From positions 1,710,364 through 1,774,363 of the forward strand of contig MU058065.1 of NCBI GenBank assembly GCA_013265495.1: a stretch of 64,000 nt of DNA. The letters are read 5' to 3'. The stretch comes from Vicugna vicugna (Eukaryota). A program made the position numbers and the translations under genes. How positions within the stretch are numbered: position 1 is the stretch's first letter; each line of letters starts with the position of its first letter. Positions 28,032-32,944 of the stretch are shown piece after piece. The notes below the pieces were generated by a model. The model saw only the letters and a program-made list of their open reading frames with translations, ran no database searches and had not been told where the DNA came from.

Positions 28032-28170
28032 GCAATTTGCAGATGCGTGTGGGCAGGCCCTGGACGTGAATGAGCGCCTCATCAAGGAGGACCAGCTGGA
28101 GTACCAGGAGGAGCTGAGGTCCCACTATAAGGACATGCTCAGCGAGCTCTCGGCAATCATGAATGAGCAG
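28032..28170 (+). CDS. DOCK10: DOCK10 coding exon (QFADACGQALDVNERLIKEDQLEYQEELRSHYKDMLSELSAIMNEQ)
   Basis: ctcaaaag| acceptor and CAG|gtgagg donor; 139 nt; end of DHR2. Confidence 0.96.
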
Positions 28171-29443
28171 GTGAGGCTTTGCCCGGGTGGCCCGTGCGGT
28201 CCATTCATAGAAAGCGCCCATTTGATCCCCAGTGCCAGAAGGACCGGAAAGAATCTCTTTTTTTTTTTCTTGCTGCTAGTATTATTGTACTTACACAAGC
28301 ACCATGTTTCTGAGCTGTTCTCTCCCCCAGGCACGACATCCCATCCCTCAAAGGAGAGATCAGGTTGGGGAAAATCCATAGGAAAACAAGATGAGAACCC
28401 AGGTGCTTTCCAGTTTTCAGAGATGTTTATCCAAACCGTGTGCGTTGATCTTCTAGAGCCAGTGGCACCTGTTAGACACCACAACATTGGGTGGCATTGA
28501 CATAGAGCTTCCTGCCACTCCCATCACCCTGATTGAGCAGCTCACAACCCCTAGGCTGGGATGTGGAGGTCCACAGTTCTGCCACTAGGGGTCTCTGCAC
28601 CATACTCAGGAAGAACACCAGGACTAGGGTCAAGGTCTTTGATGGTCAAGACTGGATCTCTGGAAGATGGAATTCGGATAAAACTCAATCCCCCCCACTA
28701 CAAGCAAGTCATCCGTGATTTCTGGCACGTAGTCGGTATATTCTGTAAGACTGTACACAAGATGTTGACATTCAGGAATCACAGTACTTTTGGGGGGTAC
28801 TGGGAATCAAGTGATCAAAAGCCAAGTTCTGCTTTTTTTGGCTTTCTTCCCAGCATCCATCAGCCCTCACACTCTACCTGGACATACCATCACCCATGGT
28901 CCCCTCCAAGAGTTCTTTACAGAAAAGTGAGGGGGAGAACTTGCACTGACCTCCCAACAGGGCCTCATGCACAGTAGCCTTTCATTAAATATTAATTCCC
29001 TTTCCCTTCCTTCAGCAGCCTAGTATTATAACCCTATTCACAAAACGTGAAATGTGTCATACACATCTTTTATTCTAGTTGCATTTCCCATATGTTTCTT
29101 TTTTCATCTTTCCCATCTCCTTCCACCCACATTTTAAACTCTCCATAGCAGCTAGAGAAAGAAATGCATAATTGACTTATGATGCAAAGATTAAATCTCC
29201 CTGGATAGGATTCCTAGAGGAGACAGTATCAGTTAGGGGTTGCTCAGGGGTAATGGAAATTAAATATTCAGGAGCAATGCCTTGATAGCGTGGGGAAATT
29301 ATAAATCTGAGAGTGAAACAAAAAGAACCAACAGTGGATCTGAAAATTGGAAAAAGTGGCAAAGAAGTGCTTGTTTCCAACTGTAAATTGTACCTGGCCT
29401 TGAAACTTTGGGCAAAAATGCTTCTCTCTTTTTTTCCTGGCAG

Positions 29444-29519
29444 CTCTGTCGCGGTCCATGTTTATACAGCTTCTGCTCCTCTGTGTCTAGTATTTCCCTC
29501 AGTACTGTAAGCAAAAGTG
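29444..29519 (+). CDS. DOCK10: Candidate 76-nt cassette exon (LCRGPCLYSFCSSVSSISLSTVSKS) that shifts the last-exon frame
   Basis: cttctctcttttttttcctggcag-type strong acceptor; G|gtatgt donor; open in phase with ...MNEQ; continues openly into a second frame of the last exon. Confidence 0.72.
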
Positions 29520-29589
29520 GTATGTTTTTCTTTCCTTATGTCTATTCTGTCCTTTGTGGCCTTCTGGTCTACCTGTTCATTTTCGCCAG

Positions 29590-29657
29590 ACACTTCCATA
29601 GTGACCAGTGTTCTCTAAGTGTTTATTTAATTAGAACAACTTTATTTCTATTTCAAG
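29590..29657 (+). other. DOCK10: Candidate 68-nt stop-containing alternative exon
   Basis: Long pyrimidine tract ending tttcgccag|; AAG|gtaggt donor; reads TLP* or DTSIVTSVL* depending on the upstream exon. Confidence 0.45.
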
Positions 29658-31996
29658 GTAGGTTGATATGAAAAAAAAAAGCTTACTAAAATCAAAAAGC
29701 TAAAGTGAACAACTTAGCTTTTAAATGGAAAATCTATACTCTATCAACTTCTCAAATACATCTGAGCTCATCTGTACCCAAAACAAAGATTCATTATACC
29801 TCAAAGTGCTAAAACAATAGTACAAAGACGAGAGAAAAAAAATTTCTTTTCCAGAAAACCTTTGCTAAGAGAGGCAGAATTTGACTCTGTGCTTCCTGGA
29901 AACATACGCAAAGAAAAGAAACTAATGGATTGCACAGGTCTTGTTATTCAGTAAAAGAAATAGATCTGTTGGCAGGAAAGATAAACTTTCTCCTTGTCCT
30001 GAGCTTCAGTGGGGATTTGTCACCTAGGGCTTTATATGTGGAACAGTGACTACAACACTCATGATTTCTTCAACGACTTTTTCCTTAAAAATGATTTACT
30101 AGTATATGGTCTTTCTACATTTCCACCTTAGATTAAACTGAGGACAAAATATTAACTTCTAACTCTGTGGAAGAGCTCCTAGAGGAAGAACTATTTGATT
30201 GATATCAGTCATTAGGTTTAAATTAACCACAGCAAAACTGTAAGTCATCTACAGCAAAATAAGCCATTTTCACGGCAACCACTGATAAGTGTTTTGAGTT
30301 GGTGGTAATGAACAATTTTCTGAAATCAGAAACAGCTAGCAAAGGATAGGGGTCCTTAAAGTCCAGTGTATTTTTTAAAACTGGGTATTTAATCTCAGTT
30401 TGGATTTATAACATTAAAAAATGTGTTTGTTTCTTTTCTCAGTTTTTTTTAATAAAAAGGCGTTTGACTGTAATGTTTGAGTTTGGACTCTAGTGGAGGG
30501 AAGGGCAGTCAAATTTGAGCATAATCTTGTAATGCATGAATGAACCATAATCTGTAACGCATGAATACCTTCTCATGGCTATGTATCCATACACATATTT
30601 TGGAGACAGGTACATACACAATTACAGTGAAGAGAGAAATCCTACCATTAAACTTTGTAAAAATGGAAACAGCTTGAATGGATAGACAGACATAAATAGA
30701 AAGATAGAAATAGAATTAAATATGCCATTCACTCCAAGAGTGTCCAGAAAAGTCTTAGCTAAAAGGTTAAGACAGAAGCCACTACTTAGTGAAAGAACCT
30801 TTAATATGAGGTGAGAGATGGAGCAGGATGAAGTGGATGCTGGTGTGTAAAATGGAGATGTGGAGCTGGGGTAGCTTGAGTTGCTCAAGTGACAGGCAGG
30901 CAGTAATTACGTTTATGGGCAGCAGAATGTCATGCTGTTTTATAAACGGCCAAAAACCATAAAAGCCTCTTTTGATGGAGGCCAAAGTAATACGTATAAC
31001 TACCTGGATGAAACATAAATAGGAAATGCTGATTCGGAGTCTGTTTCAACATTTAGAAGGGGGACAGCATAGTCGCATAGTCAACGGTGGTAACGGATAT
31101 CAAATATAATATCAAATATTATATCAAAATATATATATCAAAACACAGCAACAAGAACACATCCGCTCTGTTACGGTGCCAAGCGGGCGAGATCCAAAGG
31201 CATGTTGGTTTTAGAATTTCAGATGCTTTTTGGATGCATTATTTGCCAAATTATTCAAGCAGAACTTGTGACATTGATCACAAGGAGAATGTATTGGTGG
31301 TGTAGAATTCATGGATGCTGGCTGTTTGGTGGGGGGGCAGAGTGGCAATTCTGGCTTGGAAGAGGAGTTGAGCTAACGCTTGGTAATGTGTGAAGTTAGT
31401 GGGGAAATCATCATAACAGGAAGTTTAAAATATTCATTAGGTCTCATCTGCACAGAGATTTTAGAGGTGCCTGGGGGCTTTTGCTGTTGTGATTGTGTTC
31501 ACATAGCATGATTGGAATGGATCTGATGGGAGAGTATCATTTAGGCATATTAAGATTATTTTCAAAAGTAAAACCAGGCCAAGGTATATTTTTCTTGTAT
31601 TTCCATTAATGCAAACACTCAAAGGAGATTTCACATCTTTCCCTTTTCTGGCAGATTTTGACAGTACAAATTACAAACTTTGTGGATAAAATAAAATTTC
31701 AGAATTACTCAAACACATTCGTAAGATTCATTCAGGCAGTTAAAAATACGTATCCGATAGTTGAAGAGTATTGGAAAGCTACTTCAAATCTTGTCAACAT
31801 GGCTGTGATGCAGCTGGGGAAAAAAAATCTTTAGATATGCCTTGATAAGTGCATTTTCAAAATTTGCAGATTTCCCTGTGGGGAATTTTTTTTTAAGAAA
31901 TCACTGTTTTGGGGGTTTAATTTTGTGTTTTGAGATACTAACACAAACCTCTCTGTTATCATTTTGTTTTGTCGTGTTGTTTTGTCCCGTCTCAAG

Positions 31997-32113
31997 ATTA
32001 CGTGCTGGGACGACCCTTCAAAGCGCGGAGTGGAGCGAACCTGCACGCGAGTCATTAGCAAGGCCACGCCCACTCCGTCCGCAGCCTCGGTCTCACCCAG
32101 CGCAGAAGTTTGA
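31997..32113 (+). CDS. DOCK10: DOCK10 last coding exon (ITCWDDPSKRGVERTCTRVISKATPTPSAASVSPSAEV*)
   Basis: gtcccgtctcaag| acceptor; TGA 32111-32113; ...TCTRVISKATP...SAEV C-terminus recognised as DOCK10. Confidence 0.95.
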   Translation: MTCWDDPSKRGVERTCTRVISKATPTPSAASVSPSAEV

Positions 32114-32755
32114 GGGAGAAAGAGAGCCTGCAGCGTCAGACGCGCCTCCAAGAGAACTCTGAATTTGCAGCTAATCTCCGGGAAGAGAAAGACAGATTTA
32201 ATTTATTTGAAGATTTTAACGGTGTTAATATTTTTTTTTACTTCGCTAGCTTGAGAATTTTGCCAGCCTCCAGATTTGCACATTTCTTACAGTTTTTTTT
32301 TTCCTTTGAGCGGCGTCGATCCAGCCAAGCTGAATATTTGCTATGAAATTCCAATGAATGTGTAGCTCAAAAGCAAACCATAAGTTTGCTGTCGGTTACA
32401 GTATGTTCAGTACCCAGTCCTCGTACACATATTTTAAAGGTCAAAGTGAATGTTTTTGTAACATTTAAGCGTATTTCCAATGTAAATAAAAGATTGTAAA
32501 ATACATGGTTTTTACCAACTTTAAAAGAACCTTTTTAGTTAATACTTATGACAGTGCTAAAATTATATGAATAACATTTCAGATACCATTATATTAAAAT
32601 ATTTGTGTATGTGTACAAAAGTGTTGATAAATACTAATCTTTAAAGTTTGTGGAATTTCTTTATTTGTAATATATGTGCTCTTAAAAGCAATGAAATGTG
32701 AAACTATAGAAGCCTTTTGTTGTTAATAGAAATAAAAAATACAGTTACTTTCCAT
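32114..32755 (+). other. DOCK10: DOCK10 3' UTR (end approximate)
   Basis: AU-rich and apparently repeat-free after the stop; AATAAA at 32485-32490 and 32731-32736. Confidence 0.75.
32731..32736 (+). terminator. Probable main polyadenylation signal
   Basis: AATAAA followed by U-rich and GU-rich downstream sequence. Confidence 0.65.
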
Positions 32756-32797: not shown

Positions 32798-32944
32798 GGG
32801 GAGAATATAGCTCAGTGGTAGAGTGCATGCTTAGCATGCATGAGGTCCTGGGTTCAATCCCCAGTACCCTTGTTAAAAAACAAATAAAAACCTTATAACC
32901 TCCCCCCCCCAAAAAAAACCAGAAACAAACAAAATAAAATAAAA
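32798..32944 (+). mobile_element. Vic-1-like camelid tRNA-derived SINE
   Basis: ggggagaatatagctcagtggtagag (A box), gggttcaatccccagtacc (B box), C-run and A-rich tail. Confidence 0.85.

Follow-up and report, generated by a model that had tools for sequence, protein, structure and literature searches.

A conserved 76-nt cassette exon exchanges the C-terminal tail of DOCK10 by shifting the frame of a dual-coding last exon

What does the penultimate cassette exon of DOCK10 do to the protein? With this 76-nt exon included, the last exon is read one base out of register, in a second open frame, such that one C-terminal tail of the GEF is exchanged for another. The window analyzed here, a 64,000-nt stretch of Vicugna vicugna DNA (GCA_013265495.1, contig MU058065.1, positions 1,710,364 to 1,774,363), covers the 3' portion of DOCK10, which lies on the + strand. 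When the exon is skipped (28170 joined to 31997), the protein ends in a 38-residue tail terminating in SAEV; when the exon is spliced to 31997, the residues ...MNEQ are followed by a 45-residue tail. We regard the existence of the exon and the conservation of the tail switch as practically certain. The features of the locus are as follows.

28032..28170, + strand: constitutive DOCK10 exon, 139 nt, encoding the end of the DHR2 (GEF) domain as placed by Pfam and solved constructs; donor CAG/GTGAGG
29420..29443, + strand: acceptor (AG) of the cassette exon with its pyrimidine tract; YGCY motif from 29419
29444..29519, + strand: penultimate cassette exon, 76 nt, frameshifting; 25 codons plus 1 base, open in phase
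29507..29512, + strand: internal weak donor GTAAGC of a candidate 63-nt in-frame form, assessed from sequence and protein models
29520..29671, + strand: donor GTATGT, followed by the frame that reads on into the intron and gives a 75-residue tail (TGA 29669-29671); annotated third form
31997..32058, + strand: dual-coding part of the last exon; the inclusion frame stops at TAG 32056-32058
32059..32113, + strand: remaining coding tail of the skip form (...SAEV, TGA 32111-32113); 3' UTR in the inclusion form
32485..32490, + strand: first poly(A)-signal hexamer past the stops, by sequence match; further hexamers at 32593 and 32731

An earlier note on this DNA had proposed the exon, its acceptor, its donor and the last exon at 31997 from the letters of the window, and every coordinate is as it claimed. 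By a simple pyrimidine score, the acceptor (cag ending at 29443) holds the top value of 19, tied with three others, among the 266 AG sites of the intron. By a rough matrix, the donor GTG/GTATGT at 29519 ranks sixth among 209 GT sites, and the internal donor ACT/GTAAGC at 29506 ranks twelfth. The encoded peptide has a Cys/aromatic start followed by a Ser/Thr-rich core. Pfam places the end of DHR-2 lobe C 5 residues ahead of the switch point, and DOCK10 DHR2 constructs with solved structures end 2-3 residues past it.

The tail switch is already known: RefSeq camelid models, mouse UniProt and a splicing atlas of 2018 all contain it, and the gene appears in a 2026 dual-coding list. The 45-residue tail that the window predicts matches, letter for letter, that of the RefSeq Vicugna pacos DOCK10 isoforms X16 and X18 (XP_015097856.1 and XP_015097858.1), and the orthologous tail forms the end of mouse UniProt isoform 2, which bears out the proposed replacement of the ...SAEV tail. 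These records and Camelus X13, X15 and X17 share the same exon, junctions and tail, with no difference in the 76-nt form; two residues of the tail differ between the window and Camelus, which by itself would place the window in alpaca or a near relative. The atlas (Weyn-Vanhentenryck et al. 2018, PMC5989265) devotes four table rows to mouse Dock10, one of which is likewise a 76-nt cassette (CA-210293-256229-257559-257635-259727; Datasets S5 and S9), in a 3498-nt intron. By the mm10 coordinates in PMC7392665 this is the last Dock10 intron, the match of the exon resting on length and position rather than on sequence. In the portions of PMC5989265 covered here, the exon is a table row and neither the gene nor the protein consequence is discussed in the text. 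A preprint by Tress et al. (bioRxiv 10.64898/2026.05.28.727796) lists DOCK10 among 82 genes containing dual-coding regions that have been retained across the jawed vertebrates; in the part covered here it names DOCK10 once, without the exon, and the region is likely the same.

How widely is the switch distributed? A query in the cassette frame matched named DOCK10 isoforms, a query with the rodent inclusion tail returned 74 proteins, and a junction-region query gave 132 matches, 120 of them listed; further members were added from cluster look-ups. Among the resulting 244 DOCK10 proteins (longer than 300 residues and containing the junction motif; mostly predicted models), 123 carry the frameshifted tail, 76 the skip tail and 21 a read-on tail, with five other in-frame forms, one 63-nt form, one other cassette ending and 17 other ends; because the searches favor cassette-bearing records, these counts are not frequencies. 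Counting one hand-chosen record per named species, the frameshifted form occurs in 65 species: 56 mammals (two of them marsupials), 5 turtles and 4 teleosts. The earlier suspicion that other mammals share a similar C-terminus, and that it may not be new, was thus correct. The inclusion tail spans 42-47 residues across the 65 species and is 45 residues long in 51 of them. Human, bird, amphibian, monotreme and shark proteins do not appear among the matches listed, which is not equivalent to absence given that word-based searching and clustering limit the matches.

The last exon is dual-coding in the sense that an upstream splice event of 3n+1 nucleotides (76) shifts the frame of shared DNA. In all 21 other species for which both tails are available, the two tails can be read from a single DNA as +1 frames up to the first stop, and the implied cassette length is 76 nt in 20 of these pairs and 79 nt in herring. 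Run on the window's own DNA, the method made no error at 63 positions, with 4 ambiguous. The next-best register fits 2-4 codons, and shuffled tails fit at most 9 codons in 300 tries vs 21 for the window. In arowana the overlap covers only 7 codons, and this pair is weak taken alone. Since the RefSeq alpaca model has the identical tail and 21 of 21 pairs fit +1 frames, the dual coding predicted for the last exon is not a chance property of one sequence. Both frames and their stops are kept across the clade, the skip tail being 38 residues in 27 of 34 distinct tails; blue whale, toothed whales, manatees, sea turtles, teleosts and naked mole-rat depart from this pattern. A Logan ORF resembles the cassette exon and flanks of a related mammal with a small frame-changing deletion inside the cassette, and could be an assembly error.

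The arrangement falls into the class of penultimate exons described by Preussner et al. 2020 (PMC7392665): the exon length is not divisible by 3, and the inclusion stop sits in the last exon, so that NMD is not triggered. This agrees with the earlier expectation, and the mouse exon is classed as 'coding' in the PMC5989265 table. With the inclusion form as reference, the skip form has 38 new residues (the class requires at least 20) and 18 codons from the inclusion-form stop onward (at least 10). All three DOCK-D paralogues show the same NMD-escaping design at the same junction. DOCK9 has an 8-nt frameshifting exon in human and mouse, regulated in neuron differentiation, and DOCK11 has an 18-nt stop exon in mouse (PMC7392665). 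However, inclusion in DOCK9 and DOCK11 truncates the tail, whereas the DOCK10 76-nt exon adds a conserved peptide. The Dock10 row of PMC7392665 is a different exon, a 73-nt stop exon located 127 nt after the DHR2 exon in mouse. Near the corresponding place, the window contains a possible 33-nt in-frame exon (28331-28363) with a fair acceptor at 28330 and a donor CAG/GTTGGG at 28363, for which we found no sign of use. Other reports concern other matters: HERC2 binding is unrelated, its motif being N-terminal (residues 158-164), and the DOCK10 events in the part of PMC12424998 covered here (an acidic exon and a cryptic stop exon) and in PMC8975553 (a 5' intron) appear to be distinct. The eight supplementary files of PMC13160074 contain no DOCK10 row under the UniProt accession used.

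Two side forms deserve comment. A 63-nt in-frame form, proposed earlier as a variant that keeps SAEV, would yield 59 residues. It is represented by 1 of 244 models (a Dromiciops record without isoform number) and by none of the camelid records examined, and 9 of 56 mammals, namely 8 carnivores and chinchilla, lack the GT of the internal donor. We therefore reject it as a regular product. The read-on form, in which the acceptor is used and the intron is then translated, was missed by the earlier note and accounts for 21 of 244 models, including alpaca X5, X9 and X10, dromedary, mouse isoform 3, rat and armadillo. Its nine distinct tails range from 47 to 135 residues with no conservation of length, and in the window its stop sits at an A-run; on these grounds it may represent partly spliced RNA. 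Within the read-on frame, 138 nt past the cassette donor, lies a strong donor consensus (AAG/GTAGGT at 29657, second of 209); an extended exon of 214 nt ending there is conceivable, though unsupported.

Which of the two tails is the constrained one? We counted parsimony changes on a textbook tree of 14 mammals from protein sequences, non-mammals being left out, as were Mus (length difference) and blue whale (early stop). The upstream DHR2 exon shows 0.15 changes per residue vs 0.28 for the cassette (p=0.27), and the last exon in the inclusion frame shows 1.35, which differs from the cassette at p=4e-5. The skip tail shows 1.30 changes per residue over the shared DNA vs 2.18 in its skip-only end (p=0.04). 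The conserved unit thus appears to be the cassette peptide, which would be nearly as conserved as the GEF domain, with selection and splicing-signal constraint not separable from proteins. The 20 residues contributed by the second frame of the last exon appear to be under no greater constraint than the skip frame. Codon-position classes within the overlap do not differ significantly, with 10, 16 and 16 changes (p=0.42; 14 mammals, from protein sequences).

Within the cassette, residues 12-26 form a core in which 11 of 15 positions are identical between alpaca and arowana, and S13, S15, S18, L19 and D26 do not vary among the 56 mammals, the 5 turtles and arowana. Ser or Thr occupies cassette positions 9, 12, 15, 18 and 21, an i+3 spacing that resembles casein-kinase-1 relays; S12 is replaced by Ala in two Mus species and by Pro in pangolin. 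Clupeid fish keep the frameshift, yet retain only 3-6 of the 15 core residues. In Heterocephalus glaber models, a degenerate 25-codon cassette is joined in frame to the SAEV tail, and the naked mole-rat lineage has apparently lost the frameshift.

The SAEV tail appears on sequence comparison to be the less conserved of the two, a variability that the earlier note overlooked. SAEV ends only 9 of 34 distinct skip tails, and skip tail lengths range from 6 to 48: the arowana tail has 6 residues, that of clupeids 15, that of sea turtles 31, that of manatees 47 and that of several toothed whales 48. In orca, pilot whale, false killer whale and beluga the 48-residue tail is frameshifted; the manatee tail reads past the usual stop. 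Class I PDZ ligands have an S/T-x-hydrophobic C-terminus; we reject SAEV as such a ligand given that its −2 residue is Ala and that it is present in so few of the distinct tails. These observations also bear on the idea that inclusion acts by removal, deleting a C-terminal binding motif or degron in the skip tail, with the new tail incidental. The paralogues lend this idea some weight by analogy, since in DOCK9 and DOCK11 the 139-nt exon is likewise followed by an alternative penultimate exon, which leaves a tail of no more than 1-2 residues (PMC7392665 Table S1). In DOCK10, however, the tail that would be removed is the variable one and the peptide that is added is the conserved one, and we consider a removal switch quite unlikely.

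The earlier note had singled out a tail with three Cys and a Ser-rich run. As sequence this stands: all three Cys are present in 54 of 56 mammals and Cys11 in 56 of 56; Mus pahari has lost two Cys and pangolin one. As a general property of the tail it does not, and the comparison suggests that the Cys residues are mammalian, not pan-vertebrate, and that the Ser-rich core is older. A use for these residues along the lines of the earlier note would be a lipid switch, with the Cys/aromatic cassette start S-acylated to anchor DOCK10 to membranes and the Ser run serving as a spacer. Several bats and the mole gain a Cys at position 3, and the GEF activity of the paralogue DOCK11 is reported to be raised by membrane association (PMC13663769, in the part covered here). 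However, Cys11 is absent in 5 of 5 turtles, Cys2 is absent in 2 of 5 turtles and arowana has no Cys, and all of these keep the frameshift. The literature searched for DOCK10 palmitoylation, judged by titles or the starts of abstracts, contained nothing on the subject. We consider it unlikely that acylation is what the cassette primarily provides.

The mouse data show the exon in use in cortex. PMC5989265 Dataset S5 classes it as 'coding' and 'known AS' in module M4+, with an mRNA/EST tag of 1/14. Inclusion in mouse cortex, in a series from E14.5 to 21 months, is 0.58, 0.71, 0.84, 0.91, 0.53, 0.69, 0.62, 0.67 and 0.56; that is, it ranges from 53 to 91% with its maximum at P4, and an independent mouse frontal-cortex set gives 0.62-0.80 (PMC5989265). 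By these tables the inclusion form is the majority form in mouse cortex. The regulator calls for the exon are -1 for Mbnl and 0 for Rbfox, Nova and Ptbp (PMC5989265), and we read the sign of the Mbnl call as predicted repression. The same study describes a late switch of Mbnl targets, with which the drop in inclusion past P4 agrees; glial DOCK10 could also dilute the signal after P4. A motif scan of the window found no TGCATG, GCATG or ACTAAY within 300 nt of the exon. YGCY and YCAY are not enriched near it, with 7 of 41 YGCY motifs of the scanned stretch located there, about as length predicts. YGCY sites occur at 29368, 29419 and 29474.

In alternative exons, conservation commonly extends to the nucleotide sequence. 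It could accordingly be imagined that the exon is kept for splicing or mRNA regulation and that both tails are near-neutral disordered ends. The lineage losses and the drift in naked mole-rat and clupeids would suit such an RNA-level relic, as would the value of 0 in the 'Under selection' column of the mouse table (PMC5989265). Several features argue otherwise. The 3n+1 frame and the tail length of 42-47 residues are kept from teleosts to placentals. The first base of the inclusion-frame stop is a third position of the skip frame, where change is synonymous, and this site shows 0 changes in 14 mammals. Finally, since NMD is not triggered, there is no obvious RNA-level output. An RNA-level relic is in our judgment very improbable.

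We propose that an ancient 76-nt cassette swaps the DOCK10 tail and that its MBNL-restrained inclusion appends a Ser/Thr-hydrophobic patch that alters partners, localization or turnover, a reading to which we assign a probability of roughly 0.55; the functional steps taken by themselves are about an even bet. First, MBNL proteins would hold inclusion down, leaving it highest in perinatal cortex. Second, inclusion displaces the frame of the last exon by one base and so substitutes the 45-residue tail for the 38-residue one. Third, the selected unit would be the 25-residue cassette peptide, above all its Ser/Thr-hydrophobic core at residues 12-26. Fourth, the new tail would likely act as a docking or phosphorylation patch. 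Adjoining the end of DHR2, this patch may tune partner binding, localization or turnover of the GEF, and catalysis should be untouched because the switch point lies past Pfam lobe C, where the solved DHR2 constructs end. S-acylation of the mammalian Cys residues is a possible later addition. An AlphaFold2 prediction of a 622-residue DHR2-plus-tail fragment from a 36-row alignment had a mean pLDDT of 38.8 and failed to fold even the known domain, and is uninformative about the tail. In the openly available literature searched, no study of the function of the inclusion isoform was listed.

Dendritic spines require DOCK10, a GEF for Cdc42 and Rac1 (PMC4472020), and isoforms or splicing of DOCK10 are not mentioned in the part of that paper covered here. 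A spine GEF has a tail switch kept since the teleost-tetrapod split, and in mouse cortex its included form predominates. If MBNL represses the exon, it would be a candidate for mis-splicing where MBNL is lost. A bolder and decidedly tentative extension, prompted by the sequence comparisons, is that the inclusion form, with an MBNL-gated phospho-relay or docking cassette, is the true and ancestral working form in neurons, the SAEV tail being a default that drifts, and that the DOCK-D GEFs share one switch. Were this true, spine studies based on one cDNA may have worked with the minor brain form.

Finally, we note two features at the 3' end of the locus. The last exon (31997-32500) is CpG-rich, with an observed/expected ratio of 1.09 in its coding part and 0.89 in the UTR, vs 0.2-0.3 in the introns. 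Just past the 3' UTR, at about 32800-32870, lies a SINE-type insertion that is tRNA-like and has an A-rich tail.
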